A DNA stretch of 64,000 bases from Escherichia phage dhabil. A model generated the notes under the pieces. The model made no database searches and was not told the DNA's origin. It saw nothing but the letters and a program-made list of their open reading frames with translations. The stretch lies in sequence record MN850621.1. One strand, 5' to 3'. Shown here in pieces: positions 9,306 to 55,581 of this stretch; the stretch's first letter is position 1, and each line of letters opens with the position of its first letter. The position numbers were made by a program, and so were the translations under genes.

Positions 9306-9324
9306 ATTCTCACCTCTTAGAGAA

Positions 9325-9375: not shown

Positions 9376-9575
9376 TTAATTATTCAATTTTGTAGACTTG
9401 ACCTCGAACTTGATAAAATTCGCCTTCCCAGGTTTCTACCATAATGGTCACATACTCTGCGAACAAAGGTCTCTTCTCGGCCCAGAGGTATCCAAATTCA
9501 CCGGTGGCTAGCGTTATCCAGTACTTTCTCATAAAGTCTCCTAATTGTATGGCACTCATGTACCATACATATTTA

Positions 9576-28409: not shown

Positions 28410-28541
28410 TTACTTAATTCCTCGGTTGATAGCCTTATCGACTATCTTCCGAACTTCTCGTTTCTCGAGCCAGCATAATACTAGAAGGGCTCCGAAAGAG
28501 AATAATAACAAACCTATAAAAAGCAATAGAGGACCTAGCAT
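28410..28541 (-). CDS. small membrane protein, 43 aa
   Basis: ATG at 28539-28541 with SD GAGGACG; hydrophobic MLGPLLLFIGLLLFSFGALLVLCW; below ORF-track cut-off. Confidence 0.3.
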   Translation of the reverse strand: MLGPLLLFIGLLLFSFGALLVLCWLEKREVRKIVDKAINRGIK

Positions 28542-31051: not shown

Positions 31052-32709
31052 TGTTTGTGGAGTTCAGTAGAACCTGTAGGTTTATATTTTACACCAGTTT
31101 CCTGGTCAAGCAAAACCCACTTATCAGGACAACGAGTAATAATTTGAGCCGTAATAGGGTCACGAACTTCATCGACAAATTCACCCGTAATAAGCTTACG
31201 CTTACGAGGATGCCGCTTCAGCAGCACACTCAGTTGATACAAACCATTATAATAAGCACCCAGAGCTTTCAGAGGGTTATTCTTAAAGTAACCTGCCAGA
31301 GCCATCCAAATAACGGCAATCCAGAGCTTGTGCTTAAATGTGCACATAGGGATATCGTCTAAAGGCATAACCTTTTCGATATCAACGAATACACGAGTTC
31401 CGTTACGAGTTAATCCACCCCATAGAGGGTCTGAGTTAAATTTATCATAGCCATCGATAGAATAAAGCACCTTAGCTTCATCATAAATCGCAGGGCCTTT
31501 AGAACTATTACCGAAATAACCGCGTGGGTCGATGATTTTAATATCACCTTCGTCCGACAGCATAATATTACTGTAGTGCGGGTCGCCATGAATAAGTTGG
31601 TATGGTTCTTTATGTTCAGACAGAATTTCTAGTGCATGGCGGAGAAGTTTTTCAGGGTCGCCTACTTTGAAATCGTTAACGTGGGTAATGCCTTGTGGAG
31701 CAAAGCCTTCAATCAATCCAGCAATAGAAGCATTACGAATAAGGACCTTGTCCAATACTTCTTTCTTAACATCAGAATACCATTGTTCATCGGACGGATT
31801 ATCGATAGTTCCACCAAATGAACGTAATGCACTAATGACCTTATAAACCATGAGGACTTTAGTTTCTTTGGACATAAAGCGGTAGGCATCTGCCATGGTA
31901 CGACCAAAGATACGTTCCATTTTAATGAATTCGCCTGGAGAAAAGTCCACAATACTAGGAACAAATTCAGAATCAATAGAATTATACCAATTGATTTCTT
32001 TAGATTGAATTTCTTTACCTAATTCGTTAGTTGGTACTTTAATGGCCAGATTCTCAGTGAATTCTAATTTATTAAATTCACGATTGATTTCAGATTCTTC
32101 ATGGGCCTTAGCCAGTTTCAATTTGTCACCGACATCAACTACAAAGTCTAGTTTACGTTCGGTCAAATAGACCATTGAATCCAGGTTATCAGCAAGGTCT
32201 TCACCATAATTAGAACGGTCGAAACCTGTCCAGTTAGCCACCTGATACAAACCAACTACGCCACCACCAGTACCAATTTCACGTAAATATGGTTCTTCGA
32301 ATGTAAAACGACAGTCGGTTCCATAGGTATAACAGTAGTCGTTACCCCATTCAACTTTATGACCGATAGGAATGATGTCACACCAGTTAAACAAGACATT
32401 ATGGCCAATGATATCTTCGGCAATGCAATCGATAGCATGGGCCGAACCATTAGCAACATCAACGTTACGAATAGTGAATTTAGGCTTATCGCCAGTAATC
32501 ATGTTAATGGATTTAATATAGCCTTTAACGAGGTCGTTAAATTTGCTGTGGATAACCAGAATAATTTCATCTGATTGGTTACTATACAAATCATACAAAT
32601 GTTTTAATACAGTATGTTGTTTGTAGTTAACCAATACCTTCGGGATTTCGTTAGTAATTGGATACAACCGTGAGCCAAGACCTGCGCCTAAAATAACAAC
32701 CTTTTTCAT
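31036..32709 (-). CDS. bifunctional sugar-1-phosphate nucleotidyltransferase / APH-ChoK-family kinase
   Basis: N-terminus VVILGAGLGSRLYPIT (RmlA/GlmU/LicC-type loop); C-terminus HGDPHYSNIM and IIDPRG (kinase catalytic loop); start moved from 32739 to ATG 32707-32709 with SD GAGGAA. Confidence 0.6.
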   Translation of the reverse strand: MKKVVILGAGLGSRLYPITNEIPKVLVNYKQHTVLKHLYDLYSNQSDEIILVIHSKFNDLVKGYIKSINMITGDKPKFTIRNVDVANGSAHAIDCIAEDIIGHNVLFNWCDIIPIGHKVEWGNDYCYTYGTDCRFTFEEPYLREIGTGGGVVGLYQVANWTGFDRSNYGEDLADNLDSMVYLTERKLDFVVDVGDKLKLAKAHEESEINREFNKLEFTENLAIKVPTNELGKEIQSKEINWYNSIDSEFVPSIVDFSPGEFIKMERIFGRTMADAYRFMSKETKVLMVYKVISALRSFGGTIDNPSDEQWYSDVKKEVLDKVLIRNASIAGLIEGFAPQGITHVNDFKVGDPEKLLRHALEILSEHKEPYQLIHGDPHYSNIMLSDEGDIKIIDPRGYFGNSSKGPAIYDEAKVLYSIDGYDKFNSDPLWGGLTRNGTRVFVDIEKVMPLDDIPMCTFKHKLWIAVIWMALAGYFKNNPLKALGAYYNGLYQLSVLLKRHPRKRKLITGEFVDEVRDPITAQIITRCPDKWVLLDQETGVKYKPTGSTELHKQWKKI

Positions 32710-32769
32710 TATCTGTTCCTCAAGTGAATGTAGATACATTATACACTATTTTTAATAAATTTCTATTGC

Positions 32770-33270
32770 TTAAATCTTATCTTTACCGTATTCCATGCAC
32801 TGTTCTACTGCAGCAGGCACTTTGGTCTTAAGCTTGTTGATTTGTTTCTTATAATCGCGCGCCTTATCGAAGCTCTCGGTTTCGAGCATTTCGTAATAAC
32901 GGGCCTCGTGGACGGAAATCTGTAGATTGATATGGTTTACACACATCGCGTACAGTTTCTGCTTTTTGTACAAATCATCTTGGCGCTTCATTTCTGCCTG
33001 GTGTTTGGCTAGTACCGCTTCACGCTTAGACTCTTGTTCACGTTGGAATTCGATTTCCCTTTGAGCATATTTTGCACAGTTATTACCACATTGATTATTA
33101 GCTCGGGTATACACAAGTCCAGAACCAGCACGGAATTTCATTTCGCCGTCGAATTGTTTCTGTTCAGCTGCAATACGAGCTTTACCAACTTCATCAGCCG
33201 AAACTGCATCGCCGTATTGGACCGCGCAACCTGATAGGAGCATACTCATTGCGATAATTAACTTTTTCAT
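32770..33270 (-). CDS. putative lipoprotein, 166 aa
   Basis: Signal peptide with lipobox LLSGC; coiled-coil-like remainder. Confidence 0.5.
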   Translation of the reverse strand: MKKLIIAMSMLLSGCAVQYGDAVSADEVGKARIAAEQKQFDGEMKFRAGSGLVYTRANNQCGNNCAKYAQREIEFQREQESKREAVLAKHQAEMKRQDDLYKKQKLYAMCVNHINLQISVHEARYYEMLETESFDKARDYKKQINKLKTKVPAAVEQCMEYGKDKI

Positions 33271-33288
33271 AATATCCTCAATTAAAAC

Positions 33289-33415
33289 AGTTATACTTAA
33301 TTTGTGCTATAAGAATAATCCATCCCATGATTAATGTTGGAATCATTGGAGGAATTGCCACTGCCCAATAAATGGTAAAGGCAACCATTATAAGAAATAA
33401 AATAATTATCTTCAT
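33289..33415 (-). CDS. small membrane peptide, about 41 aa
   Basis: ATG overlaps the imm stop (ATGA); MKIIILFLIMVAFTIYWAVAIPPMIPTLIMGWIILIAQIK. Confidence 0.3.
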
Positions 33416-33648
33416 TGTTTAACGATAATGATTTGTGCGTTTGATTTACGTTCAGCGACGATAGCCCAGATTAAAGCCACTACCCAACCAATCATCGTCC
33501 ATCCTAACAGGAGATTAAGGAAGAAGATTCCGACATTGCTACGAGTGCCTCGCAGAAGAGCCAGAATCCATGGTAAAAAGTAACCAATGAACATAATAAC
33601 CAGAGAACCGAATCCTAAAACACCAGCACTAACGATTAAAGCTTCCAT
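33412..33648 (-). CDS. imm: Imm-like superinfection immunity membrane protein
   Basis: 78 aa, two predicted transmembrane helices; directly downstream of gene 43 as T4 imm. Confidence 0.6.
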   Translation of the reverse strand: MEALIVSAGVLGFGSLVIMFIGYFLPWILALLRGTRSNVGIFFLNLLLGWTMIGWVVALIWAIVAERKSNAQIIIVKQ

Positions 33649-33666
33649 TATAATTTCCTCATGTAG

Positions 33667-33708
33667 TTGATAGGAAGGATACTACCACGTTCCATGTGGT
33701 ATGTAAAC
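33667..33708 (-). promoter_or_regulatory. T4-early-type promoter cassette variant
   Basis: Minus GTTTAC (33703-33708), N18, TAGTAT. Confidence 0.45.
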
Positions 33709-33710
33709 AC

Positions 33711-36422
33711 TTAAAAGTCAAACATGTCAAATAATGTTGCTTTTTTCTCGTAGTCGATTTTAGCAGACTCAGTAAAACCGGTCAGAGGTTTGATAAAGGT
33801 CTTTTGGAACAGTACATTGTAGTCCATCCAACGGAGGACTTGGTCACGAATCTGAATCGGAAGTTCAATACCTGACGGCCATGCCATACAAGCTTCACCG
33901 AACGGGTTGCCTTCTTTAAGTGGCAGTACATATACCTTTTCACCATCAACGATACGAGGCATAGTCAAATCACCGGCAGAAGCACGCATGTAAGCTAAGC
34001 AACCTTTGATGTGGTACGGACATTTAGAACCAGGGAAACCGCCTTCATTATATTTCTCGATGTTGTTAGCACTGGATACTGCAGCAATGCTTACATAGTC
34101 TAGTTCGTTAAATTCCTTATTAAACTGTTTGAAATATTCTTGCAAAGAGGCCTCGCCTTCTTGAAGCATACGTCGGATACATTCTTTCAGAGCTTTCTGA
34201 ACCGCTTTAGGTGTACTTGATTTCTGGGTTTCGAGACCCATGATTTTCAAGTGTGGTTCGGCATAGCGAGTACCTTCCATGTCCCAAACGTTCAGTGCAT
34301 AACGTTTCTTGCCTGTCCAGAATCCACCAAGACCTTTAGAACCAAGTGGAGGACCAGCGATAGCTTCTCGGTCCATGAACATCAAGTGCTGTTTATTGTT
34401 CATGTATTCACACATCTCACGGAAGCCTGCATCAATAGCTGGTTCCATACGTTCACGTGCAAATTTATCTAAGAAGTCGACCCAGTGGTTGGTATCACGG
34501 AATTTGTCTTCGCCTACTTTATTGATGATTGCATCGGCCTTAACATAAATGGAGTCGGTATCACCATAGAGCACGAACTTCTGGTTTTCAGTCTTGCACA
34601 CACCATTCAGATATTCGTTAACCTTACGTTCAATCCATTGGAGGGCCATTTGACCAAACAATGTTATTGCAGTTGCGTTCCTGAGGTCATAGTAACGGAA
34701 CCATACGTTACCAAGTGCACCATAAAGGGAGTTGATAAGCAATTTACGGTTAATCTGAGCAGTCATACCTGCGACTTCAGTACGTTCGGCTTTGAACAAC
34801 ATTTCTTTTAAAGAAGAGGCTGACAATTTTTTAATCTGGGCTTTGACTTCGTCAGAGAAGTCGAAACGATAATCAACATCCAATGGACTATCAACAGACA
34901 GATTAGGATTTTCTAATGCTTCTTTAATTAACTCACCATTACGTTGAGCTGCAAGCATATAACCTTTATGTTCTTTACGTTGTAAGAACACCTTCGTGAT
35001 TTCTGTAGGAATCACACCATCACGGTCTTTATAGTACATCATGCCGTTAGGAGAGCAACTGTAGGTGTCGCTAGGACGCGGAGCAGTTCCGGCAATATAT
35101 TCATGTATCGGCGCGTTTGCGAATGTCCCTGCGATGGTCTCTGGGCTTATATTCACTTGTCGAATGATACTCGGGTACAGAGATGTAAGGTCGAAACTCA
35201 TTACATATTTGTACGCGTTAGGAATAGGTTCCTTAACGAAAGCGCCTGGATAAGGTTGAACCGCATGCGATTTGGCCTGAGGAATAACTTTACCCTGTTC
35301 TTTAAGGCTATTAAAGATAATAGCGTCCCAAGTCTTAATTGGACTGAACACCGACTGAATCTGCATCTTGGCATAGTAACCCATGTCCAGACTAAGAAGA
35401 ATGAACTGGCGTTTCATATCAATCTGCACAACACGATATACGTCGATAATGTTATAGGAAATATATCGTTGGTGGTTCGTCTCACGTAACTTGGAGATAG
35501 GACCATCATATTTCAACTTACCTACTTTCAATTCATATTCAGAAACGTAATCCAGAGAATAAGAAGGCTGGTTAGTAAAGCTGAATTTTTTATAAAGGTC
35601 GATATAATCCAGAACAGAGATACCGAACAGTGTAATAATTTCGCGAGCGCCGTACATGTTCTCGATAACTTTAACACGAGTCTTACGATGCGGGCTTAAT
35701 CGCTTAGCAGTGTTCTCACCAAACAGATTTTTCAGACGGTTATAAACGTATGGCACGTCAAATGATTCAACGTTCCATCCAGTCAAAATCACAGGAGTTT
35801 TCTGTTGCCAGAAATTAAGATACTCAAGCATCATTTCTTCTTCAGAATTAAACGGAAGATAAACGATTTTGTCAATGATTTCCTGTGGAACTTCGTCACC
35901 ACCTTCGTCTTGGAGTTTCTCAGCGATTTTAATCGACCACTCTTCGACCGTACCATAAGGTGAAACTAAAAGGTCGAATACATAGAATTTATCATCAATC
36001 GAGTCGTAGTGAGTAATGGCATCGATAGGATGTTTAGCCTGGGCAGGTTCAGGGAATCCATCAGGAGATGTTACCTCGATGTCGAAGTTAGCAATACGAA
36101 TCTTAGAAGAATCATACTTGATTTCTTTACGATAGGTATCAGACAAATAGGCTAATTTATAGTCATCCATACCAAGGGCTTCGAGACCCATATCGTCCAT
36201 GCGCTTCATCCACTGAGAAGCATCGCGCATTGAATCGAATTCTTTCTTAACACAGCCCTTACCGTAGATGTCAATATATTTTACGGCTTGCTCTGGGTTA
36301 GCATGCATAAACATTGTAGGCTTGTAAGGAACTTCACGACTACGTTCGTTACCATTTTTATCGATGTAACGTTCGAGAATATTATCACCGATTTGTTCGA
36401 CTGTCAAATAGAATTCTTGCAT
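33711..36422 (-). CDS. 43: DNA polymerase (gene 43, family B)
   Basis: Near-collinear with T4/RB69 gp43 as recalled (YGDTDS and other family-B motifs); ORF-track TTG start at 36482 rejected; ATG at 36420-36422 (MQEFYLTVEQ) with SD AAAGGA. Confidence 0.95.
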   Translation of the reverse strand: MQEFYLTVEQIGDNILERYIDKNGNERSREVPYKPTMFMHANPEQAVKYIDIYGKGCVKKEFDSMRDASQWMKRMDDMGLEALGMDDYKLAYLSDTYRKEIKYDSSKIRIANFDIEVTSPDGFPEPAQAKHPIDAITHYDSIDDKFYVFDLLVSPYGTVEEWSIKIAEKLQDEGGDEVPQEIIDKIVYLPFNSEEEMMLEYLNFWQQKTPVILTGWNVESFDVPYVYNRLKNLFGENTAKRLSPHRKTRVKVIENMYGAREIITLFGISVLDYIDLYKKFSFTNQPSYSLDYVSEYELKVGKLKYDGPISKLRETNHQRYISYNIIDVYRVVQIDMKRQFILLSLDMGYYAKMQIQSVFSPIKTWDAIIFNSLKEQGKVIPQAKSHAVQPYPGAFVKEPIPNAYKYVMSFDLTSLYPSIIRQVNISPETIAGTFANAPIHEYIAGTAPRPSDTYSCSPNGMMYYKDRDGVIPTEITKVFLQRKEHKGYMLAAQRNGELIKEALENPNLSVDSPLDVDYRFDFSDEVKAQIKKLSASSLKEMLFKAERTEVAGMTAQINRKLLINSLYGALGNVWFRYYDLRNATAITLFGQMALQWIERKVNEYLNGVCKTENQKFVLYGDTDSIYVKADAIINKVGEDKFRDTNHWVDFLDKFARERMEPAIDAGFREMCEYMNNKQHLMFMDREAIAGPPLGSKGLGGFWTGKKRYALNVWDMEGTRYAEPHLKIMGLETQKSSTPKAVQKALKECIRRMLQEGEASLQEYFKQFNKEFNELDYVSIAAVSSANNIEKYNEGGFPGSKCPYHIKGCLAYMRASAGDLTMPRIVDGEKVYVLPLKEGNPFGEACMAWPSGIELPIQIRDQVLRWMDYNVLFQKTFIKPLTGFTESAKIDYEKKATLFDMFDF

Positions 36423-36480
36423 TTCATTTCCTTTATAGACGAGTGATTGTCTTTTGTTTGTTGATGAATCATTATACTCC

Positions 36481-36500
36481 AAAAAAGGGACCGAAGTCCC
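36481..36500 (-). terminator. intrinsic terminator, UUCG loop
   Basis: Stem GGGAC/GTCCC 36487-36500, loop cgaa, minus-strand TTTTTTGG, followed by TATAAT. Confidence 0.6.
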
Positions 36501-36505
36501 TTTGC

Positions 36506-36721
36506 TTAAATTTCTATTGTCAAACGTTTAATAGTCGGATTGCCATCTTCGCCTTTAGTTCTAATCATAGCCTGGAAGACTTGCTGACCTGGATGTAGTA
36601 ACTTATGGAGGTCCTTTTGAAATTCTATTTGGAGCTCTTCGGAAAGGTCAAAAACAGTTTGAGTTGGTGAAAGCCCGTACACCTCTTTAAGACGTTCACA
36701 CATTTCAATTTCAAGAATCAT
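36506..36721 (-). CDS. hypothetical protein, 71 aa
   Basis: ORF-track version overlaps regA; ATG at 36719-36721, 1 nt after the regA stop. Confidence 0.4.
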   Translation of the reverse strand: MILEIEMCERLKEVYGLSPTQTVFDLSEELQIEFQKDLHKLLHPGQQVFQAMIRTKGEDGNPTIKRLTIEI

Positions 36722-36722
36722 A

Positions 36723-37085
36723 TTAATTACCAATGGTATACTTAGACAATAGTTCCCAGTCATTTTTCTGTTTAAAGGAAATGACACGGAAATTATTAGT
36801 AATTTCGAACAATTCAGAATCGTCTACAATATCAATAAGTCCCCAATCCTTAAGAAGCTGGGCGATAGAATCGCGGCGTTGGTAGTCTTCACCATCGATA
36901 TCTACCTGGCGACCGTCCATACGCAACATCTCTTTAAAGTGGACAATATAATACCGTCCTTGCTTTTGCAAAATGTGGCAGGATTGATATAGTTTCTTTT
37001 CTTTATTATTAGCGATACCCATACGAGTCAGGGTCTCTTTCACTTTTAGGAAGTCTTCAGGTTGCTTCAGAGTAATTTCAATCAT
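36723..37085 (-). CDS. regA: RegA translational repressor
   Basis: 120 aa; MIEITLKQPEDFLKVKETLTRMGIANNK...NNFRVISFKQK matches T4 RegA as recalled. Confidence 0.85.
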   Translation of the reverse strand: MIEITLKQPEDFLKVKETLTRMGIANNKEKKLYQSCHILQKQGRYYIVHFKEMLRMDGRQVDIDGEDYQRRDSIAQLLKDWGLIDIVDDSELFEITNNFRVISFKQKNDWELLSKYTIGN

Positions 37086-41946: not shown

Positions 41947-42202
41947 TTTCATCATTATAAGCATCCTTGATGCATGATTCAGCCATATGAATTAATGCCT
42001 CTGGAGTATCATCTTCCATTACATTAAAACTAAATTCTACAGCCCAATCGGTAGCAACATAAACTTTAATAAGCTCGCCGGTATCACGAGTGCTCACGGC
42101 TTCAAACCAGAACTTAATTGTACTAGGTTGACCATCATCATCAATAACTATACAGTCGTGTTCCAGTTCAAGTCCCGATTTTTTGAATTCATCTAAAGTC
42201 AT
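41939..42202 (-). CDS. hypothetical protein, 87 aa
   Basis: ATG at 42200-42202, ATGA overlap with the gene 47 stop. Confidence 0.4.
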   Translation of the reverse strand: MTLDEFKKSGLELEHDCIVIDDDGQPSTIKFWFEAVSTRDTGELIKVYVATDWAVEFSFNVMEDDTPEALIHMAESCIKDAYNDENV

Positions 42203-43221
42203 CGTGTAACCTCATTATAAAGTTGTGCAGCCATAGTCTTAAGGGCTTTAACATCGGCTTCAGTGTGGCCATCAGGAAGGGCGTCGATATAATCATACAT
42301 CATATCCAAGAGAGATTTAACTTCATCTTCCTCTTCAGAATCATCGATATAAACACTATTATCTACCTTAGACACAATACGTAAAGAGTGAACAACCTTT
42401 TCAAGCTCTGATTCGAACTTAGTAAGGCCATCATCAATTTTATCGACTATAACACGAACTGCGATATTTGTAAAATCTTTGTAATCGATAGTCGCGTTAG
42501 GGTAATGAATCTTACGATGCCAACAGGTTTCATTAATGATGAAATCCATTTTATGAGTTTCGGTATCAAAAATCCAGAAACCACGGGGGTCGTTCTCATC
42601 ACCTGCAGTCAGGGTCCATGGAGTACCAATGTACTTAACGTTTGCTGCATCAGAAATAGTGTGGAAGTGACCAGACCAAACTTGCTTATACTTTTTAAGG
42701 AAATCAGGTTCTAAACCATGGGATTTCATTCCTTTATAGAAATAGAAACCATTTAATTCCCAATGACCAATACAGAAATCTGCTGTGGTATTTTTGATAT
42801 GGTCCATGATATCGGTCGTGTTTTCTTCACACATCCATGGAATCAAATCAATTTCGGTGCCATCAAAGTTAACCGTAGTAGGTTTTTCAATAACCTTGAT
42901 ATGGTCATATTTACCCAGAACTTCAGAAGCAGCATTAGGAGTTAAGGTATTTTTGTAGTGCATATCATGATTACCAACAACAGTATACATGGTAATGCCA
43001 TTAGCTTTAAGCAAATCAGAGATTTCGCGAGCGAATTCCATACACTTATGGGTAATTGCTTTACGAACGTCAAAGATATCACCATACTGAATCCATACAG
43101 TAATACCATTTGCTTTAGAATAATTGATGGCGTCTTTAATGCCCGACAATTGAATGTTTTGCACCCAAGGGTCGTCGTTCTTAACTCCAAGGTGCCAGTC
43201 ACCTGTGTTTAATATTTTCAT
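42199..43221 (-). CDS. 47: recombination endonuclease nuclease subunit (gene 47, Mre11/SbcD-like)
   Basis: 340 aa; calcineurin-like phosphoesterase motifs GDWHLG, GDIFD, GNHD. Confidence 0.9.
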   Translation of the reverse strand: MKILNTGDWHLGVKNDDPWVQNIQLSGIKDAINYSKANGITVWIQYGDIFDVRKAITHKCMEFAREISDLLKANGITMYTVVGNHDMHYKNTLTPNAASEVLGKYDHIKVIEKPTTVNFDGTEIDLIPWMCEENTTDIMDHIKNTTADFCIGHWELNGFYFYKGMKSHGLEPDFLKKYKQVWSGHFHTISDAANVKYIGTPWTLTAGDENDPRGFWIFDTETHKMDFIINETCWHRKIHYPNATIDYKDFTNIAVRVIVDKIDDGLTKFESELEKVVHSLRIVSKVDNSVYIDDSEEEDEVKSLLDMMYDYIDALPDGHTEADVKALKTMAAQLYNEVTR

Positions 43222-43244
43222 AATATCCTCGCTTAATTAAACCT

Positions 43245-43270
43245 ATTTTATCATCCATTCAGAAAGCAAA
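43245..43270 (-). promoter_or_regulatory. MotA-dependent middle promoter for gene 47
   Basis: Minus TTTGCTTTC (MotA-box-like), 13 bp, TAAAAT (plus 43245-43250), then SD GAGGA and ATG. Confidence 0.45.
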
Positions 43271-43287
43271 AAAGGAGCCTAAGCTCC
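43268..43287 (-). terminator. intrinsic terminator
   Basis: Stem GGAGC/GCTCC 43274-43287, loop ctaa, minus-strand TTTTTTGC. Confidence 0.55.
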
Positions 43288-43510
43288 TTTACCAATTAAT
43301 ACGCCATACAGAGGTTCATGAGAAGACCTGAACTTGATTTTCTTATAAGTAATAGTACCTTCATTTTCCGCTTTAATACGAGCAGCTTCAAATTTAAGTA
43401 TCATCTCATTTTTGTCAGATTTAATCTTATCAAAATCCATCGAATTCGTCATTCATAAAACCTCTTAAAAATCAGGATGTTCGTCTTTCATTAGCCACCT
43501 GTCCATGTTA

Positions 43511-43711
43511 TCATCGTTGCCACCATTTCTTAAGTTGGTGCGAATCCACCCAAACCTTGGCTACAGGCTCAATCCGAAAAATTTCATCGGAATATTGCCC
43601 AACCATTTTATATTCGGTTTCAGTCTGCTTAATACAAATATTACCGTATGAGCGAAGTCTGAAGGCGGCTCCAATAAGAAGCCGTTTAAAGGGTTTATTT
43701 ACTAGCGCCAT
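43511..43711 (-). CDS. hypothetical protein, about 66 aa
   Basis: ORF-track start 43795 overlaps the upstream gene; ATG at 43709-43711 used. Confidence 0.35.
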   Translation of the reverse strand: MALVNKPFKRLLIGAAFRLRSYGNICIKQTETEYKMVGQYSDEIFRIEPVAKVWVDSHQLKKWWQR

Positions 43712-44006
43712 TGATAATTTCCCAAATCTGTTTACGCGTAGTTTCCCACATAACTCTAACGATTTCGTCAGTAGTTGGTTGACGGTAAATACCACGTAAT
43801 TTAATTATAGCATATTTGTAAGCTTCGAAATTGTTTTCGAGAACAGCGCCCTGAGCATGTGTATTAAGACGCTTAATTTCACGGGCATTCTTTTTAAGAA
43901 TTTTGGCAGCTTGAGAAGCGGCTTCTTTAGCATTATTCTCTTCTAAACGCTTCTGGGCTTCTTCAATTTGCTCTTCGGTCAATTGAGAAATGTCGGTGCT
44001 TTGCAT
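43695..44006 (-). CDS. hypothetical protein, 103 aa
   Basis: ATG at 44004-44006; charged, helical-looking. Confidence 0.4.
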   Translation of the reverse strand: MQSTDISQLTEEQIEEAQKRLEENNAKEAASQAAKILKKNAREIKRLNTHAQGAVLENNFEAYKYAIIKLRGIYRQPTTDEIVRVMWETTRKQIWEIINGASK

Positions 44007-44007
44007 A

Positions 44008-44235
44008 TTAATCCTTGTAATTCAGTTTTATATAAAAATCTTCGTCGGTAACGTGATAGTTATAAGTTAATGTTCCTTTTTCAGCTTTAATTTCTACCGA
44101 ATCAGGGTGTTTTGGGTCTATTACAATAGGAAGCTTGGCAATATCCTTAAGATACATTTTAAGAACATAAGGAATTGCCGAATACTCTCCATCTACTTCT
44201 TCTAAAAGGCCTACCAGGTTAATCTTGAGTTCCAT
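44008..44235 (-). CDS. hypothetical protein, about 75 aa
   Basis: ORF-track start is TTG at 44256; ATG at 44233-44235 used. Confidence 0.35.
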
Positions 44236-44776
44236 ATAAAAAATCCAGCTCACCAACTTTAGATTCGGCGCTCTTATCAGACCCTGGCGCTTTAACTAAA
44301 GAGGTTTCATACTGAGTCATTTTGTCGTAAATATCCTGGATAAAAGTTTCATCTGCGATACCTACCATGTCGTCGTCATTAGCGTCATAAACGTTATGGA
44401 CGAAGTAGCTGTATTTCTTTGCCATTTCTTTGCGTTCTTTCTTGATACGCTGAACAAAGGCATTAAAACAAGCCATAGTGATATATGCATGTGGGTTGTC
44501 GTATTTTGTTTCGTCGAAGTTGTGAAGACCTTTAATAGAAGCTTCGATTCCATCAGCAATCATTTCTTGCTTCCAAGATTGGGTATACCCGGAGAAGTTG
44601 AAACGCTTAGAAAGGCCTTCAGCAATGAGCATAATAGCCAAGCCGATAACATCGTTCTGACGAACTATTTTATTAGGATCGGTATTTTCTCGGAGCTCTG
44701 TTTTCCACTGGGTAATGGCTTTCAGAAGCTCCTTATTATTTACATAGTTATTTTTAGTCAGTTTAATTTCGGTCAT
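44219..44776 (-). CDS. 55: late sigma factor (gene 55)
   Basis: 185 aa; same size as T4 gp55; position between the gene 47 side and gene 49 side. Confidence 0.8.
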
Positions 44777-47445: not shown

Positions 47446-47722
47446 AGGAAATAACTCCTTGGTAGTCCCAAGTTTTGATAACTTCGTCTTCATTAGTTCC
47501 ATATGGGATGTAAATCTGGATAAGGAACCCGGTATCATCAAAAGAGAAGTAGACCGTAGGTTTAATACCGTGAATCTCTGACAGAGCATAGATGTCCTTG
47601 AGGTCATCTTCCTTATCTTTAAAGAATTCTGGGTTCAGGTCACAGTCATGGAAGTACCATTCTTGGCCAAACTTGTCCCAAGCACCCCAATCAGTAGCTA
47701 CATATTCTTCAAAACGTTTCAT
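47426..47722 (-). CDS. hypothetical protein, 98 aa
   Basis: ATG at 47720-47722. Confidence 0.4.
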   Translation of the reverse strand: MKRFEEYVATDWGAWDKFGQEWYFHDCDLNPEFFKDKEDDLKDIYALSEIHGIKPTVYFSFDDTGFLIQIYIPYGTNEDEVIKTWDYQGVISCGPKVN

Positions 47723-47934
47723 TCTTTAACCTTCATCATTTTAGAAATAACACTATGGACAGACTGGATTCGTTTTTCGAACTCAGACTCTTCAAGACCC
47801 TTTTCAGTACTCAGCGCACCAATCATCACAAACAGCAATCCGAATGGGATGACCAGGATTAAAAGACACACAATAAACAGGACAAATGTAATATTGGCCA
47901 GGATATCAGAAACAGCGTTACGAAATTTATTCAT
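47719..47934 (-). CDS. small membrane protein, about 71 aa
   Basis: ORF-track start is GTG at 47946; ATG at 47932-47934 used; one transmembrane helix. Confidence 0.35.
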   Translation of the reverse strand: MNKFRNAVSDILANITFVLFIVCLLILVIPFGLLFVMIGALSTEKGLEESEFEKRIQSVHSVISKMMKVKE

Positions 47935-48055
47935 TAAAGAACCCACATATTAGTTACAACAAATAACCATTGAGCAGGATACTCAACACCCATAATACGC
48001 CCTGCATCGTTCAGAGATTCAACTAGAGCATAGAATGTGTAGCCATAAAAATTAA

Positions 48056-48529
48056 TCATTTAAGCGATTTCCTCAGTTGTTTTTTAAATGAATCAACCAT
48101 TTGTTTTTTGGTATCAGATTCATTATAAGTCATTCCGTGTGAAAGCATTTCAGCAATCATTTCTTCCTTACCTAATCTACTGAACTCTTTGGTTTTATCA
48201 GGAACGAAATTAGGATGGATATTGTTTTCGGTATAATCAGCTTTTAGATAGACCAGCAAATTCTCTAACCATTCGAGGTAGTCAACGTTTTGACCTTTAA
48301 GACCAGAACGGTTGAACTTATGCTTCATTTGTCCTTCTGCAGCATTGCACAGGTTACATAGTAAACCACGAACCTTACCGGCTTTTGGCCCGTTCAATTC
48401 ATGGTCGTGGTCAAGGTGGTTACTTTGAACATCAGGGTTTAATTCACGTTTACAAATCAAACACTTACCATGTTGTGCATCATAAAGTTTTTGTTTTTCT
48501 TCTTTGTATAGTTTGCCAGTCAACAACAT
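48056..48529 (-). CDS. 49: endonuclease VII, Holliday junction resolvase (gene 49)
   Basis: 157 aa; HLDHDHELNGPKAGKVRGLLCNLCNAAEGQ matches T4 endonuclease VII as recalled. Confidence 0.9.
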   Translation of the reverse strand: MLLTGKLYKEEKQKLYDAQHGKCLICKRELNPDVQSNHLDHDHELNGPKAGKVRGLLCNLCNAAEGQMKHKFNRSGLKGQNVDYLEWLENLLVYLKADYTENNIHPNFVPDKTKEFSRLGKEEMIAEMLSHGMTYNESDTKKQMVDSFKKQLRKSLK

Positions 48530-50010: not shown

Positions 50011-50218
50011 TTTCGTCTCGCTCAAATTTGTGCTTACAATGACGGCATTTATACTGAAGCGGATTATGACGCCATTGAATCAACTGGACCTGTTCAGTTC
50101 CACATTCAGGACAATTTGGAACATTCTTAGAAGCTCGTTCGCGACGTTCGACAATTTTAATAATTTGATTCCAATCAGGAATAGTTTGGTCGATATCATC
50201 GGCTAATTGATATTTCAT
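49997..50218 (-). CDS. zinc-ribbon protein, 73 aa
   Basis: CPECG...CRHCKHKF, four-Cys ribbon. Confidence 0.45.
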
Positions 50219-51225
50219 TTCAACAGCTCCAGAGCTTGTTCAAGACGGTCTAAACGATTGGTAGACTCTTCCCAAAGTTTCTTGGCAGCGGTATATTGGC
50301 CAGTCAGTTTTTTGTTAATAGCAAGGGCATCTTTATACGCTTTTTCTAAGGCAACGATTTCCGGTAACTTGGATTTAGTAATTGGTGTAGGAGCCATGAT
50401 AGGGCTATTCAAGTCATTAATCAAGTCTTCTAATGTAGCAGGCTCTTTATCGGTGTTCACAATTTCCTCACATTTTTCTTGGTAAATTTCAGCATCGGTT
50501 TTTGGAACAGGACATTTGATTTCGCGGACTTTTACTAAGACCTCGTATCCTTTCCAGCCATAGAAATGTTTTACTTCTTGAGTCTCATATTTCTCTACTG
50601 TATCCATAAAAGCTAAGGCTTGTTCGATAATATTCAAGGTGTCGTAAGCAATATCTTGATACTTTACAACTTCCGCGTCATCTTTAGGTTTCCTATTAGG
50701 TGACCAAATAACAGAAATAATAGCTTTTCCTTTATAACTATTTGTTTTAATCATGCAATTAGCCATAGGGTGAATAGTACGGGAATCACCAGAAACTATG
50801 GTTTTAGAGGCCGCTTTGAGAATTAATGCAGAGTTAGCCTTAAATTCGCTAGTCCAACGCTGTGGAAATAGACCACTAGGATCCATACCTTTCATTTTGA
50901 TATAGCTTTTTAAAACATCACCAAACCATTGGTAGCTAACAACGTGGCTGGAACCTGGGTGTTTCTCTTTGCCAAACTCTGAAAGGATATCCTTATTAAC
51001 CAGCCGCGAAAGCAGTCGAGAACCTTTAAATGTATCTATGATATCAGGGATAAACAAACGCCCTGCAATCTTTTCTATTTCAGATTTAAAATACAGCGAC
51101 AAATCTTCGTCAATTTGGTCTACCCATTTATTGATATTAGAAACTATCACCTCATATGGGGTTAATGGAGGGGTATTGTCAGTGATATACGTAGTAAAGG
51201 CATTGATGTATTCAGTACGGGTCAT
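50215..51225 (-). CDS. hypothetical protein, about 336 aa
   Basis: ORF-track start 51285 lies in the promoter; moved to ATG 51223-51225 with SD AGGAG; C-terminal coiled-coil-like tail. Confidence 0.45.
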   Translation of the reverse strand: MTRTEYINAFTTYITDNTPPLTPYEVIVSNINKWVDQIDEDLSLYFKSEIEKIAGRLFIPDIIDTFKGSRLLSRLVNKDILSEFGKEKHPGSSHVVSYQWFGDVLKSYIKMKGMDPSGLFPQRWTSEFKANSALILKAASKTIVSGDSRTIHPMANCMIKTNSYKGKAIISVIWSPNRKPKDDAEVVKYQDIAYDTLNIIEQALAFMDTVEKYETQEVKHFYGWKGYEVLVKVREIKCPVPKTDAEIYQEKCEEIVNTDKEPATLEDLINDLNSPIMAPTPITKSKLPEIVALEKAYKDALAINKKLTGQYTAAKKLWEESTNRLDRLEQALELLK

Positions 51226-51242
51226 GATATTCTCCTCAGTAG

Positions 51243-51283
51243 TTGATAAAAGGATTATACTCCATCCGTCCTTGGATGTAAAC
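51243..51283 (-). promoter_or_regulatory. T4-early-type promoter cassette variant
   Basis: Minus GTTTAC (51278-51283), N18, TATAAT (51254-51259). Confidence 0.5.
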
Positions 51284-51284
51284 A

Positions 51285-52178
51285 TTATTTTAGAGCTAAT
51301 AGTGCCGCGCGAAGCTTGTCACGCTGGTTTTCCATATTCTTGATGCGATTAAGAACGTCTTGAATACTCTTTTTCTCATCTTCAATCTGGCCATTTAAAC
51401 GATGGATTGATTCCTGGATGCTATCTGCATAATAGGTCTCAATAGGTTTCATCGTAGGGTTAGTAACAACCAAAGAATTATCGGGTTTAATTTTCCAATG
51501 ATACGGTTCGGAATTGAATGGACTGGGCACCGCGGTGGTTTTGAATTTGTCATAGGCTGCATACTGGCCTACGCTGTCACATGATACTGCAGAGATACGA
51601 CGTTCCATTTGTGGGTCCTTTTGTTGGGATTGATAAGGGGCATAAGATAAAAGATATTCGCGAGTTAGTTTAACTCTTATATACACTGCATCGGCTTGCC
51701 CTGAACAATCGGCATATTCATCGGTTGTAACTTTATACGATTCTACTGCCTTAATACGGGTCATTGCTTCCCTAAATAAGGTTTCGAATGCTTCACGAAG
51801 GGCCTTATTACCTTTTGAGGTAGGACGGAAACGAACTTGGATACCGTCAGCCAGAATATTAATGACCAGGTTACGAGCCGTAAAATTAATATTCTTGATA
51901 TTAACAGGAACCGTAGAAATACGTCCTGCGGTAGCCAAGAGGTCTTTGATATTAGCTCGTAATGTTGCACCAAACAGGTGGGCTGGGCGACGGCAATAAT
52001 CGTTCAAAGAAGAAATATAAGTTCCTTTACGACCTACGCCATAAGTATAATTACCATTACAAATATGACCAAAGTCAGCTAGCCGATCGATAGCGATACG
52101 ACGAGTCGTGTCATGGTCGTATATAGAGTATTCTTTACGTGTTTTAATATTCATATTAAAGTCCAAATAATTTTTCAT
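51285..52178 (-). CDS. hypothetical protein, 297 aa
   Basis: ATG at 52176-52178; alternative coupled start at 52152-52154; no motif recognised. Confidence 0.45.
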   Translation of the reverse strand: MKNYLDFNMNIKTRKEYSIYDHDTTRRIAIDRLADFGHICNGNYTYGVGRKGTYISSLNDYCRRPAHLFGATLRANIKDLLATAGRISTVPVNIKNINFTARNLVINILADGIQVRFRPTSKGNKALREAFETLFREAMTRIKAVESYKVTTDEYADCSGQADAVYIRVKLTREYLLSYAPYQSQQKDPQMERRISAVSCDSVGQYAAYDKFKTTAVPSPFNSEPYHWKIKPDNSLVVTNPTMKPIETYYADSIQESIHRLNGQIEDEKKSIQDVLNRIKNMENQRDKLRAALLALK

Positions 52179-52371
52179 AGAATTTAGCGATAGGCCAAAA
52201 CACCATCATAATGACCAAAACAACCCAAAGTAGGGGCCATACTAGTGTAATGAATACTGCATCATAGCTTGATTCAATTTCGATTGGATTCCAATCACCT
52301 GATTTATGAATGATAAAGGTCGTCATAAATCCTAGCACAAAGTAAAGGAGAATAAAACCTAAGATTTCCAT
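52156..52371 (-). CDS. small membrane protein, 71 aa
   Basis: ATG at 52369-52371; two hydrophobic segments. Confidence 0.45.
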   Translation of the reverse strand: MEILGFILLYFVLGFMTTFIIHKSGDWNPIEIESSYDAVFITLVWPLLWVVLVIMMVFWPIAKFYEKLFGL

Positions 52372-52455
52372 ATTAACCTATAATGTTTGAGAAAATTAGC
52401 CACAGAACACCCGTGGCTACGATTACATATCCAAGAACAGCGAGCCATTCCATAA

Positions 52456-53301
52456 TTAATCCTTAAGAAGATTTAGGATATCGATATATTTCCGGCGTTC
52501 AGCCTTAGCTTTGGCATTCAGACCAGAGAGTCGGAAAATCTCATCATCTTGTTGTTGGATTGTAACATTCAAGCAAGTAAGCAAATTGCTAAAATACTCA
52601 ATCTGGGCTTGATGTTTCTCATTGCTGCGCACTGGTACAGGTTCCATTTTAGGAGCTTGTTCTGAATGCTCTTCAGCCAGGTCTTTAATTTTATAAAGTT
52701 TAATACGTTGGCCTACTCCAGTTTCAGCATCACCAAAACTAAGAACACCGTGTTGTTCTAATTCAGACAGGGCCAAGCGCAGATGGAACTTCCAGTTGTC
52801 ATATTGACAACCACTAAAAGTTGAAATGGTATACTCATTTTCATTTCCAGGGTGGTTAACAATATTAAAGATAATCCAATCACCTGAACCGTTAGTCTTA
52901 AATGTCATTTGTTTATCAAGACCTTTTGCAAGTCGAGCGCCAAGAGCCAGTAGACGTCGTTGGTTGGCATGAAGGTCTTGAACAACTTCACCAAATGACA
53001 TCGCCGGGATTAAACGACCATAAAGGTCGTAGCCTTTGTTATAATTTTTAAGAATAATTTTGGCATTAGCACGAGACAACATACCTGTTTTACGAAGAGT
53101 TTTCATGACCCGGTCTTCTAACGTAAACGAACCTTTAGTCTTGTCAAAGATTTTAATAAAGTCATCTTTAACAGTACAAACATTGAACTTGTCCCACATC
53201 ATATATAGGACCTTTTCAACCACTTCTTTAGAACTAGGAATACGACCAAATTTAACAACTTTTTTAACTTCAGAACGAATTTGATTAATTGCTTGTGACA
53301 T
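52456..53301 (-). CDS. hypothetical protein, 281 aa
   Basis: ATG at 53299-53301; first codons MSQAI and the 25-bp initiation region are identical to 45926-45950. Confidence 0.45.
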   Translation of the reverse strand: MSQAINQIRSEVKKVVKFGRIPSSKEVVEKVLYMMWDKFNVCTVKDDFIKIFDKTKGSFTLEDRVMKTLRKTGMLSRANAKIILKNYNKGYDLYGRLIPAMSFGEVVQDLHANQRRLLALGARLAKGLDKQMTFKTNGSGDWIIFNIVNHPGNENEYTISTFSGCQYDNWKFHLRLALSELEQHGVLSFGDAETGVGQRIKLYKIKDLAEEHSEQAPKMEPVPVRSNEKHQAQIEYFSNLLTCLNVTIQQQDDEIFRLSGLNAKAKAERRKYIDILNLLKD

Positions 53302-53364
53302 AATAATTTCCTCAGTAAGTAATTAAGAACCTAGAACCATTATACCATCCTTGGTATAAAGCGT

Positions 53365-53889
53365 TTATGCGAGAACCGTCTTTAAACGCTCTTCAAATTT
53401 CTGAAGCAGAGCTTGGCGTTCAGCTCGTTGTGATTTGTACTGCTCGATACGACCTGAAGTGAGGGCGTACTGTTCGTTTACTGATTCCCGCATAAATTCA
53501 GGAATCTCTTTACAAGCTTTGATTTCGTCAAACTTATCAATAACCGCTTGTTGTTCGGCAATTAAGTTATCAAAATAAGCGATATCTGATTTAACGTTTG
53601 CCAGGTCAGATTCAGTAGGCATTAAACGTTTATTACGCTCAGCTTGATAAGCTTGGTTGGTTTCACGACTCCAGTGAAGAGTACGTTTTTTGTTGGTGTT
53701 TTTGTAGAGCTCTACAATACCAACTGAATCGATGACAGCAATCCAGTTCCAACGGCTTTTGTAAATCTCTCCTCCAGATACGGTAATCTCATTACCACAA
53801 GCAACGTCATTAAAGAACTTGCTTTGTTTTTCGGATTTGAAATTACCATTGTTAAAATTAATCAGTGAAAAAATATCTTTAGCGTTCAT
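53365..53889 (-). CDS. hypothetical protein, 174 aa
   Basis: ATG at 53887-53889; coiled-coil-like C-terminus. Confidence 0.45.
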   Translation of the reverse strand: MNAKDIFSLINFNNGNFKSEKQSKFFNDVACGNEITVSGGEIYKSRWNWIAVIDSVGIVELYKNTNKKRTLHWSRETNQAYQAERNKRLMPTESDLANVKSDIAYFDNLIAEQQAVIDKFDEIKACKEIPEFMRESVNEQYALTSGRIEQYKSQRAERQALLQKFEERLKTVLA

Positions 53890-53895
53890 GATAAC

Positions 53896-53944
53896 CTCCA
53901 GTAGTTGATAGGTCTATAGTATCATTTCTACTGGAGATGTAAAC
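53896..53944 (-). promoter_or_regulatory. promoter cassette with RBS-pairing stem
   Basis: Exact 20-mer core; minus GTTTAC (53939-53944), N17, TACTAT; 9-bp arms ctccagtag / ctactggag. Confidence 0.6.
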
Positions 53945-53946
53945 AA

Positions 53947-54288
53947 CTAATAAAAACTTTTTTCACCGGCTTGTCCACTAAACCATGCGGATTGGGTGTT
54001 CTCTTTCCGTTGATGTTTAATACGAATAAGGTATTCATTCCTGATGGCACAGAGTTCATCTCTGAAGTCGCCTGCCAACTTAACCTGCTTACGGTCTAGA
54101 TTTATTAAGGCTTGGGTCTTCGCTGCCAAGAGCAGTCTCTTGTAGTCTCCTTCTTCACAATCGGTTTTGTAAACCTTCTCAGCGAATTGGTGTTTAAATT
54201 CATTATCATAGTCTTCAATAGACTGTTTCATGGCATTAGAGTATTTCAACTCTGCTTTTATAAGGTCATAACTAAATTGTTCGAACAT
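53947..54288 (-). CDS. hypothetical protein, 113 aa
   Basis: ATG at 54286-54288. Confidence 0.4.
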   Translation of the reverse strand: MFEQFSYDLIKAELKYSNAMKQSIEDYDNEFKHQFAEKVYKTDCEEGDYKRLLLAAKTQALINLDRKQVKLAGDFRDELCAIRNEYLIRIKHQRKENTQSAWFSGQAGEKSFY

Positions 54289-54298
54289 AATTTCACCT

Positions 54299-55279
54299 TT
54301 ATTTCAGAAGTGTAACTTCAGCGATTTCGCTCCAGTCATTTTTATCGGTGGCAATGAAGTCCGCCAGGTAAAGAGCCGTGCGTAATGATACGTTACGAAG
54401 ACGAGATACATTGGCCTTCATCCATGCTAGAGCTTGATAAGTCTCAGCATCAGTCAGACCTCGGTTTTGCATCATATCAGTGGACAGGATAACGTCTTCA
54501 ACACGAACCATAATCTCTTCATTCGAGTGAACTCCGAGGTCTAAGTAAACCGAACGAGATACTAAAGCCTGGAGGTGTGGAGCAAGTTTAGTTCCACGCT
54601 CTAATTCACGGTCAATGTCAACGTTGGTGATGAACACGATGGTGCCTTCGTATTCGAATTCTTTATCGATATTTTTATCATCGAGATAAGAACTTGAAGT
54701 GCTCCAGCACACCTTACGTTTCTCACCGGTATCCAATGCGGCTTTAAGAAGGTTCAGGATATCCATGTCAGAGAATACATCAACATCATCAATAAGAAGA
54801 ACACTATTAGGGCCGCGGTTATTCCAAAGCTGCTCGTAAAGACCGATTCCACTAATCTTTCCGTTGATTGATTTATATTCGATAGTTTCATTTTCGTGGG
54901 CATTTTGTAATGCTTTATCTAAAGAGTAGGTTTTACCAATACCTGCGGCACCAGAGATGATAAGGGAACGAATTTTACCATCGATGATTCCGTTAGTCAT
55001 CATGTTCATTACTTTAAAACGTTTGTTGATGCGATGTTTCATTTCTTCAGAGGATTCGGTAACCATTACAGGAGCTTCAGCACCTTCCATTTCAACGTCA
55101 CATTTGAACACCCACACACCACGTTCAACACCATCAATCTGTACGAATACCTTGCCATCACCGAGGTGAGCTTCAGATTCATGAATTTTATTAGGGAACC
55201 AGGTTTTACCTGAACTCATGAACGTACCAGAGATTTCATTACCGCGATAGATACCTTTGTTGATTTTGATAGTTAACAT
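54299..55279 (-). CDS. P-loop NTPase (AAA-like), about 326 aa
   Basis: Walker A ISGAAGIGKTYS, Walker B VLLIDDVD; start moved from 55366 (inside the promoter) to ATG 55277-55279 with SD GGAGAA. Confidence 0.55.
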   Translation of the reverse strand: MLTIKINKGIYRGNEISGTFMSSGKTWFPNKIHESEAHLGDGKVFVQIDGVERGVWVFKCDVEMEGAEAPVMVTESSEEMKHRINKRFKVMNMMTNGIIDGKIRSLIISGAAGIGKTYSLDKALQNAHENETIEYKSINGKISGIGLYEQLWNNRGPNSVLLIDDVDVFSDMDILNLLKAALDTGEKRKVCWSTSSSYLDDKNIDKEFEYEGTIVFITNVDIDRELERGTKLAPHLQALVSRSVYLDLGVHSNEEIMVRVEDVILSTDMMQNRGLTDAETYQALAWMKANVSRLRNVSLRTALYLADFIATDKNDWSEIAEVTLLK

Positions 55280-55306
55280 TATATTCTCCGTTTCACTCAG
55301 TAGATT

Positions 55307-55345
55307 TGATAGGTCCATAATAACATGCTCTACGAGAGGGTAAAC
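55307..55345 (-). promoter_or_regulatory. T4-early-type promoter cassette
   Basis: Core TTGATAGGTCCATAATAACA; minus GTTTAC (55340-55345), N17, TATTAT. Confidence 0.55.
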
Positions 55346-55362
55346 TCTTTTTTGCACTAAAC

Positions 55363-55386
55363 CCAAAAAAGGACCCCGAAGGGTCC
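55363..55386 (-). terminator. intrinsic terminator, UUCG loop
   Basis: Stem GGACCC/GGGTCC 55371-55386, loop cgaa, minus-strand TTTTTTGGG; with the adjacent promoter it repeats the 573-652 cassette. Confidence 0.65.
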
Positions 55387-55581
55387 TAAATTGCGCTCCA
55401 ATAATTATGGAAGCGGATATTATTGATAGCCCAGTTAATACACCGTCTTATCTGCTTAGACGTAGGCTTGCATACGTACTTGAAATTGATTCGTCTACCG
55501 GTTTCTCTACAAACTACTTCAAGATACCAACGACAGGTTTTATGAGGTCTTCCATATGACAGGAAAACCTTGATTTCTTCT

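Follow-up and report, generated by a model that had tools for sequence, protein, structure and literature searches.

The window analysed here, a stretch of 64,000 nucleotides from Escherichia phage dhabil (MN850621.1), comes from a Dhakavirus, a JS98-like relative of T4, and lacks the genes for T4-type glucosylation of DNA. The phage is likely to use a reduced form of the RB69-type pathway, by which cytosine is replaced with arabinosyl-5-hydroxycytosine, and the use of this different hypermodification pathway would explain why the T-even glucosyltransferases are missing. The finding itself is real, its interpretation in the first-pass annotation of the window, as a phage that makes hydroxymethylcytosine (hmC) and does not glucosylate it in the T4 way, was partly wrong, and the biology is already known.

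As computed here with tblastn, the T4 alpha-glucosyltransferase (a-gt) and the T4 beta-glucosyltransferase (b-gt) have no homologs in the window, the best E values (0.027 and 1.8, respectively) belonging to short chance matches, and neither of them found anything in the whole genome of Escherichia phage CLB_P2. This phage is the nearest relative of the window phage, and its complete genome (171.8 kb) was searched as well. The T6 a-gt is also absent from the window and from the CLB_P2 genome, and the T6 beta-alpha-glucosyltransferase (beta-alpha-gt), the product of ggt, reached E 0.021 in the window, in a chance match inside gene 43, and E 0.057 in CLB_P2. The best chance matches of the T4 and T6 a-gt (E 0.027–0.033, over 36–37 residues) fall inside the gene of a HAD phosphatase. 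These searches bear out what had been noticed at first, that a-gt and b-gt do not occupy their T4-syntenic positions and that T4-style glucosylation is missing, and they revealed no homologs elsewhere in the window or in CLB_P2. The large unannotated open reading frames (ORFs) at 50215–56592 were also considered as a hidden transferase and were rejected; they are orthologs of T4 nrdC.4, nrdC.5, nrdC.6, nrdC.8, nrdC.10 and nrdC.11, and do not match any glycosyltransferase family.

Over a 7-kb stretch, the window is 98.2% identical to CLB_P2, 98.2% to phage dhaeg and 96.5% to JS98; all three belong to the genus Dhakavirus. The genes follow a T4-like order (uvsX, a group of non-T4 genes, 43, regA, 62, 44, 45, rpbA, 46, 47, a set of small genes and 55), and all the genes treated in this work are on the minus strand. 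In the T4 reference layout, a-gt is located between 47/47.1 and mobB/a-gt.2, and b-gt between 42 and segA/uvsX. Petrov et al. 2010 (PMC2993671) reported that the gt genes are missing in JS98 and RB69, though genes 42 and 56 are present, and left open whether such phages contain bare hmC or another modification.

Proteins encoded at the positions of gene 42 and b-gt

The gene that had been read as encoding a hydroxymethylase of deoxycytidine monophosphate (dCMP), and as a sign of hmC, encodes a protein of 232 amino acids (aa) that, by its sequence, is an ortholog of the dCMP 5-hydroxylase of the RB69/HY126 type and not of T4 gp42. It is 80% identical to RB69 gp48, whereas its alignment with T4 gp42 reaches 24.5% identity over 159 residues (E 3.5e-8). 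In the PDB search, it matched the entries 9iqu, 9iqc and 9ir2 at E 2e-125, and T4 gp42 (1b49) at E 1.5e-4. All 13 active-site positions listed in PMC13326640 are the same as in RB69 gp48 in the alignment, and the protein presents D169N, L143E, N177D, W80A and G173V (E. coli ThyA numbering), also as in RB69 gp48. The catalytic Cys146 of the thymidylate-synthase fold is present, together with the N177D and L143E residues that specify dCMP. Neither close homology to T4 gp42 nor an Asp at the position of ThyA D169 was found in this protein; Asp169 is retained in T4 gp42 and in the true thymidylate synthase of the window phage.

The orthology and the active-site signature were computed here, and the hydroxylase activity is taken from the literature on the orthologs. 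RB69 gp48 and DLP3 gp80 are flavin-containing enzymes that convert dCMP into 5-hydroxy-dCMP (5hodCMP) with O2; the hydroxylase activity was also shown for the HY126 enzyme; and D169N marks this activity, with nine further D169N homologs that made 5-hydroxycytosine (PMC13326640). Given the close identity to RB69 gp48, the D169N substitution and the complete match of the active site, the base made by the window phage is therefore most likely 5-hydroxycytosine rather than hmC, and the earlier reading of the gene as a source of hmC does not hold. The CLB_P2 record labels the 5-hydroxylase 'deoxycytidylate 5-hydroxymethyltransferase', an annotation artefact that may mislead automated readers.

The T4 b-gt position is held by a protein of 297 aa which, as judged from its structural model, is a glycosyltransferase of the same fold superfamily with a sequence family of its own. 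It is 70% identical to RB69 ORF047c in the N-terminal half and 65% to ORF046c in the C-terminal half; a sequencing error had divided a single gene into these two RB69 ORFs (PMC13326640). No pairwise similarity was found to T4 a-gt, T4 b-gt, T6 beta-alpha-gt or RB69 gp3 (all E > 1; blastp against T4 b-gt, E 2.6), and neither a Pfam family nor, even with a profile of 50 sequences, a solved structure in PDB was matched. Its glycosyltransferase identity is visible by fold comparison only. The AlphaFold2 model computed here from 50 homologs has a mean predicted local distance difference test score of 95 and a predicted template modelling score of 0.90, and presents the two Rossmann-like domains of the GT-B fold; all its top fold matches are Leloir GT-B transferases, not pyrophosphorylases. 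Among viral models, Foldseek retrieved RB69 ORF047c, ORF046c and viral group-1 glycosyltransferases, and the BFVD search found 50% identity to a protein of Acinetobacter phage KARL-1 (47–50% to the Acinetobacter homologs by tblastn). The previous statement that this protein is unlike b-gt is thus correct for the sequence and misses the fold, and the proposed search for GT-B homologs does succeed, at the same 42–uvsX locus that had been dismissed.

The 297-aa family is present in 352 phage records, always of T4-like phages, including LC53 and 92A1, Serratia phages with DNA known to contain arabinosylated 5-hydroxycytosine. As an ortholog of RB69 gp46:47, the enzyme would act as the first arabinosyltransferase, with arabinofuranose linked to uridine diphosphate (UDP-arabinofuranose) as donor and 5-hydroxycytosine as acceptor.

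Sugar-activation genes and the proposed pathway

The hydroxylase and transferase genes are the last of five early genes between DNA polymerase and uvsX, with the transcription order AfhE-like, AfhF-like, P-loop kinase, 5-hydroxylase and 297-aa GT-B protein. Overlaps between start and stop codons link them at 31036–31051, 30653–30656, 30120–30123 and 29425–29428, and by this arrangement the five genes are translationally coupled. Within the T4 stretch compared, these genes and that of a 166-aa lipoprotein are the only ORFs between 43 and uvsX that have no T4 counterpart. A scan of the module for sigma-70 promoters and terminators returned 20 sites, with 17.5 expected in shuffled sequence, so there is no excess; a single site (32765–32738), just upstream of the AfhE-like gene, is noteworthy.

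The AfhE-like protein, of 557 aa, contains the Pfam domains NTP_transferase and APH, both above the gathering score, and matches nucleotidyltransferases in PDB. The JS98 annotation and the alignment with RB69 define the start used here; the mechanical ORF reaches 32739. In PMC13326640, AfhE is described as an arabinose-5-phosphate 1-kinase and UDP-arabinofuranose pyrophosphorylase, and AfhF of HY126 as an arabinose-1,5-bisphosphate 5-phosphatase; the two enzymes lead from arabinose 5-phosphate to the 1,5-bisphosphate, the 1-phosphate and then UDP-arabinofuranose. Both components, a protein with nucleotidyltransferase and kinase domains and a HAD phosphatase, were found in the window with 41–62% identity to RB69 gp51–53. 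Taking the activities of AfhE and AfhF from this literature, the homologs of the window phage most likely make UDP-arabinofuranose, and since the neighbours of the hydroxylase match the HY126 pathway, the DNA is most likely sugar-modified and not bare.

In the proposed pathway, gp56 would supply dCMP, which the 5-hydroxylase would convert into 5-hydroxy-dCMP; this would be phosphorylated and then polymerised into DNA in place of cytosine. Arabinose 5-phosphate, presumably made by the host, would be transformed into UDP-arabinofuranose, and the 297-aa transferase would add one arabinose to the 5-hydroxyl group. E. coli makes arabinose 5-phosphate itself via KdsD and GutQ. As no isomerase is encoded by the phage, these host isomerases are presumably the source of the compound.

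Some points weigh against this reading. The role of the gp46:47-type proteins as first arabinosyltransferase is still a hypothesis, with no member for which transfer was demonstrated; single transferases were inactive on 5-hydroxycytosine DNA, and the stage at which the first sugar is attached, nucleotide or DNA, was left undecided (PMC13326640). For TH1_063 of Shewanella phage Thanatos, a 300-aa protein with a glycosyltransferase-like fold, the Thanatos paper reported UDP-xylose pyrophosphorylase activity; we take it as a homolog of the 297-aa protein by its size and its position beside a thymidylate-synthase homolog, from the descriptions in the two papers. In addition, the isomerase, gp49 and gp50 of RB69 are missing, and the AfhE homolog is 41–44% identical to that of RB69, so that arabinose is the presumed sugar. 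Further transferases were looked for by sequence, and GT-B enzymes can escape a search of this kind, as the 297-aa family does. The searchable literature yielded no chemical analysis of DNA from a Dhakavirus.

The genes of the P-loop kinase, the GT-B transferase and the 5-hydroxylase lie side by side in RB69 (45, 46:47 and 48), Acinetobacter phage DLP3 (78, 79 and 80), Rhizobium phage RL38J1 (214, 215 and 216) and the window. This conserved triad, together with the negative assay of single transferases on DNA, gives room for glycosylation at the nucleotide level. The first sugar would then be placed on the mononucleotide, a dedicated kinase would phosphorylate the glycosylated dCMP, and the polymerase would insert the glycosylated nucleotide, in a pre-replicative process unlike that of T4; we consider this improbable. 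The P-loop kinase is always contiguous with the other two genes, and the internal order varies among the four phages. Phages with the kinase triad also have a gp1-type deoxynucleoside monophosphate kinase that phosphorylates 5hodCMP, the P-loop kinase being an extra one.

Number and identity of the sugars

RB69 gp3 (arabinosyltransferase 2, of the family of the HY126 glycosyltransferase 9iqz) has no match at E ≤ 1 in the window or in CLB_P2. In the same two sequences, there was also no match for RB69 gp55, the arabinose-5-phosphate isomerase (RB69p055), and no homolog of gp49 or gp50. A remnant of gp3 was considered in the gap between rIIA.1 and gene 39, and none was found by the gp3 search, the ORF list or the PHROG matches. 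In the phage collection, gp3 homologs occur in 212 records, confined to Mosigvirus-like and Acinetobacter phages, and the isomerase in 276, versus 352 with the 297-aa family. Among Escherichia phage records the figures are 137 for the isomerase, 137 for gp3 and 176 for the 297-aa family (totals compared, not record by record), and the excess of 176 over 137 is read as the Dhakaviruses without isomerase.

The numbers of transferases and of arabinoses go together in the phages characterised so far: one and one in Thanatos, two and up to two in RB69, Bas46 and Bas47, and three and three in DLP3. As a single transferase is detectable in the window phage, its DNA would therefore carry mono-arabinosyl-5-hydroxycytosine, with one arabinose on each modified cytosine.

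Two or more arabinoses, as in RB69, would require a second, unrecognised transferase elsewhere or an iterative action of the 297-aa enzyme. The 297-aa family itself escapes both Pfam and the comparison of its profile with PDB, which indicates that orphan GT-B enzymes can evade sequence screens, and many CLB_P2 proteins are unannotated. However, the gp3 homolog is absent from the window and CLB_P2, with no Dhakavirus-level matches in the phage collection; the syntenic slot between rIIA.1 and 39 contains two small ORFs only; and the large ORFs of the 50–57 kb region are orthologs of nrdC.4–nrdC.11, which T4 also has. Multiple arabinosylation is thus unlikely.

Slightly less probable is that the pentose is a different one, for instance xylose or a deoxypentose, or that the 297-aa protein is a sugar-nucleotide pyrophosphorylase rather than a DNA transferase. 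In favour are the missing isomerase in the window and CLB_P2, the low identity of the AfhE homolog to that of RB69 and the UDP-xylose pyrophosphorylase activity measured for the Thanatos protein. As E. coli has KdsD and GutQ, however, a phage isomerase is dispensable. The AfhE/AfhF pair is complete and has its own nucleotidyltransferase domain, and the top fold matches of the 297-aa protein are all Leloir GT-B transferases. In addition, Thanatos is counted as mono-arabinosylated in PMC13326640. Finally, hmC made by a gp42-type hydroxymethylase, unglycosylated or otherwise modified, is very improbable: the 232-aa protein is indeed of the thymidylate-synthase family and can be aligned with T4 gp42, the CLB_P2 annotation names it accordingly and the same possibility was raised for JS98 by Petrov et al. 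2010 (PMC2993671), but its identity is far higher to the verified 5-hydroxylase, it carries D169N where gp42 keeps D169, and its gene is translationally coupled to those of a GT-B transferase and a sugar-nucleotide pathway.

Comparison with related phages and other features of the window

The arabinosyl-5-hydroxycytosine pathway proposed for the window phage is most similar to that of RB69 and the Mosigvirus phages (gp45–gp55 and gp3; Afh of HY126; Bas46/Bas47), with which it shares the location between 43 and uvsX and the lack of T-even gt genes. All the sequence and fold comparisons that could be made place it among these RB69-type pathways, as a reduced form. RB69 orthologs of all five module genes are in the window, from 80% identity in the synthase to 38% in the P-loop kinase (Table 1). 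Unlike RB69, the window phage has no isomerase gp55, gp49, gp50 or arabinosyltransferase 2 gp3, and its P-loop kinase is encoded upstream of the synthase, whereas in RB69 it is downstream of the transferase. One arabinose is predicted here, in contrast to the mixture of one and two in the RB69 system.

The scheme of T4 is also similar, with a dCTPase, a thymidylate-synthase-family enzyme that modifies C5 and a GT-B transferase acting in succession. On the other hand, the predicted modification of C5 is a hydroxylation with flavin and O2 instead of the folate-dependent hydroxymethylation of T4; UDP-arabinofuranose would come from phage enzymes, whereas T4 uses UDP-glucose of the host; and the transferase resembles neither a-gt nor b-gt in sequence, the a-gt position being empty in the window. 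Thanatos, with mono-pentosylated cytosine, also has a single protein of about 300 aa with a glycosyltransferase fold beside a thymidylate-synthase homolog, and an AfhE-like bifunctional protein of 561 aa. PMC13326640 cites it as mono-arabinosylated with one arabinosyltransferase; it is a distant phage with a distant host, and its 300-aa protein was published as a UDP-xylose pyrophosphorylase, not as the transferase that we assume. The triad of kinase, transferase and hydroxylase also occurs in RL38J1, a galactosylating phage of Rhizobium (PMC13326640). The Dhakaviruses JS98, JS10, IME08 and CLB_P2 present 92–98% nucleotide identity and the same gene order, and the only relevant difference is gene 47.1, present in JS98 and CLB_P2 and missing in the window phage.

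Table 1. Features of the window discussed in the text, with the evidence for each assignment.
Feature	Position	Strand	Evidence
rIIA.1–gene 39 interval (slot of RB69 gp3)	8996–9575	-	two small ORFs only, 8982–9305 (phrog_5382) and 9380–9559 (phrog_4369), PHROGs of unknown function
Gene 56, dCTPase/dUTPase, supplies dCMP and depletes dCTP	21393–21914	-	annotation (dCTPase or gp56) at the matching CLB_P2/JS98 position alone
uvsX, landmark of the b-gt position	27159–28331	-	67% identity to T4 UvsX; Pfam T4_UVSX_C and RecA
297-aa GT-B-fold glycosyltransferase, RB69 gp46:47 ortholog (proposed arabinosyltransferase 1)	28535–29428	-	exactly at the T4 b-gt location
Thymidylate-synthase-family dCMP 5-hydroxylase (5hodCMP synthase), 232 aa	29425–30123	-	80% identity to RB69 gp48; Pfam PF00303, E 3.6e-13
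P-loop (thymidylate-kinase-like) nucleotide kinase, 178 aa, RB69p045 homolog	30120–30656	-	38% identity, E 3e-31; phrog_761 (thymidylate kinase); Walker A GPDNSGKST
HAD phosphatase, 132 aa, RB69p051/AfhF homolog	30653–31051	-	62% identity, E 4e-55; HAD motif I DIDNT (DxDxT); phrog_1238
Bifunctional nucleotidyltransferase (N-terminal) and APH-type kinase (C-terminal), 557 aa, RB69 gp52:53/AfhE homolog	31036–32709	-	44% identity to RB69p053, 41% to RB69p052
Predicted lipoprotein, 166 aa	32770–33270	-	signal peptide MKKLIIAMSMLLSGC, LSGC lipobox, invariant cysteines; between the arabinose module and imm/gene 43
Gene 47, SbcD/Mre11-like recombination nuclease subunit, left landmark of the a-gt position	42199–43221	-	71% identity to T4 gp47, full length; annotated as gene 47 in JS98
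57-bp spacer, where JS98/CLB_P2 carry 47.1 and T4 carries 47.1, a-gt and mobB	43222–43278		alignment with JS98 and CLB_P2
Terminator-like hairpin, GGAGC-TTAG-GCTCC followed by T6	43268–43290	-	read from the sequence; overlaps the a-gt.2 stop codon, just upstream of gene 47
a-gt.2 ortholog, 57 aa, DUF5486 (PF17588)	43279–43452	-	54% identity to T4 a-gt.2, E 3e-20
a-gt.3 ortholog, 66 aa	43511–43711	-	45% identity to T4 a-gt.3, E 1e-14; start by analogy with the JS98 annotation
a-gt.4 ortholog, 103 aa, DUF2654 (PF10849)	43695–44006	-	43% identity to T4 a-gt.4, E 6e-22
a-gt.5 ortholog, 75 aa, DUF5491 (PF17595)	44008–44235	-	51% identity to T4 a-gt.5, E 5e-18; start overlaps the 3' end of gene 55
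Gene 55, late sigma factor, right landmark of the a-gt position	44219–44776	-	78% identity to T4 gp55

At the a-gt position, the interval between 47 and 55 corresponds to that of T4 without 47.1, a-gt and mobB. It had been described with three ORFs; it actually contains four small T4-orthologous genes, a-gt.2 to a-gt.5, with 43–54% identity to T4. Only 57 bp separate gene 47 from a-gt.2, and a gene of about 400 aa is not present between 47/47.1 and a-gt.2. For the a-gt.3 ortholog, the mechanical ORF reaches 43795 from a GTG. Gene 47.1, whose product in T4, JS98 and CLB_P2 is a predicted membrane protein of small size, was lost in the window phage by a clean deletion of about 140 bp, as seen in the alignment with JS98 and CLB_P2; the T4 47.1 finds no match in the window and a match of 78% in CLB_P2. 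The hairpin at the end of a-gt.2 has one exact match in the window, is conserved in JS98 and CLB_P2, and looks like an intrinsic terminator-like element inside an early or middle transcription unit.

The place of the 166-aa gene is taken in T4 by the lipoprotein-like imm.1 and in RB69 by the isomerase. The gene was considered as a replacement isomerase or sugar enzyme and rejected, as it presents a lipoprotein signal peptide with lipobox and no match to an enzyme family; no significant similarity to T4 imm.1 was found either (E 6.4). The protein is conserved in Dhakavirus and Gaprivervirus (53%), with distant relatives of 28–35% in other phages. The relative in Serratia phage LC53 is within about 60 bp of the isomerase match, and that in Erwinia phage Gravdalen overlaps the annotated arabinose 5-phosphate isomerase.

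In another region of the window, at 47719–48529, gene 49 (endonuclease VII) comes directly after gene 55.8. T4 has nrdG and nrdD (anaerobic ribonucleotide reductase), with homing endonucleases, between 55.8 and 49; they are not at 47719–48529 in the window, the only position examined. In the CLB_P2 record (OL770107.1, for example at 29680–36763), about a dozen unrelated genes, including the orthologs of nrdC.4–nrdC.11, are labelled 'thioredoxin', another annotation artefact that may mislead automated readers.

Parts of this picture are present in earlier work. The JS98 record labels orf38–orf42 as 'RB69 orf047c/048c/045c/051c/052c-like', the homolog of ORF53_52c in IME08 was pointed out by Thomas et al. 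2018, and a 2026 paper in NAR (Nucleic Acids Research) counts the Dhakaviruses among the carriers of the syntenic cluster (PMC13326640). The puzzle of Petrov et al. 2010, that JS98 and RB69 have 42 and 56 without gt genes, has since been solved for RB69-like phages by arabinosylated 5-hydroxycytosine, and the finding opens no new kind of biology.

For the Dhakaviruses, the labels 'dCMP hydroxymethylase' and 'hypothetical protein' in their records are probably wrong or empty. As suggested by its relatives, the DNA of the window phage should resist many type II enzymes, would likely be sensitive to nucleases of the GmrSD/BrxU type, as is the arabinosylated Mosigvirus NP, and would probably be difficult for nanopore basecalling, as reported for RB69. 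To our knowledge, this is the smallest such module, with five genes, one transferase and no isomerase. As a natural minimal pathway, it may be useful to assign the first arabinosylation step and to test the dependence on host arabinose 5-phosphate, and it would be the cleanest system in which to ask whether glycosylation takes place at the nucleotide level.

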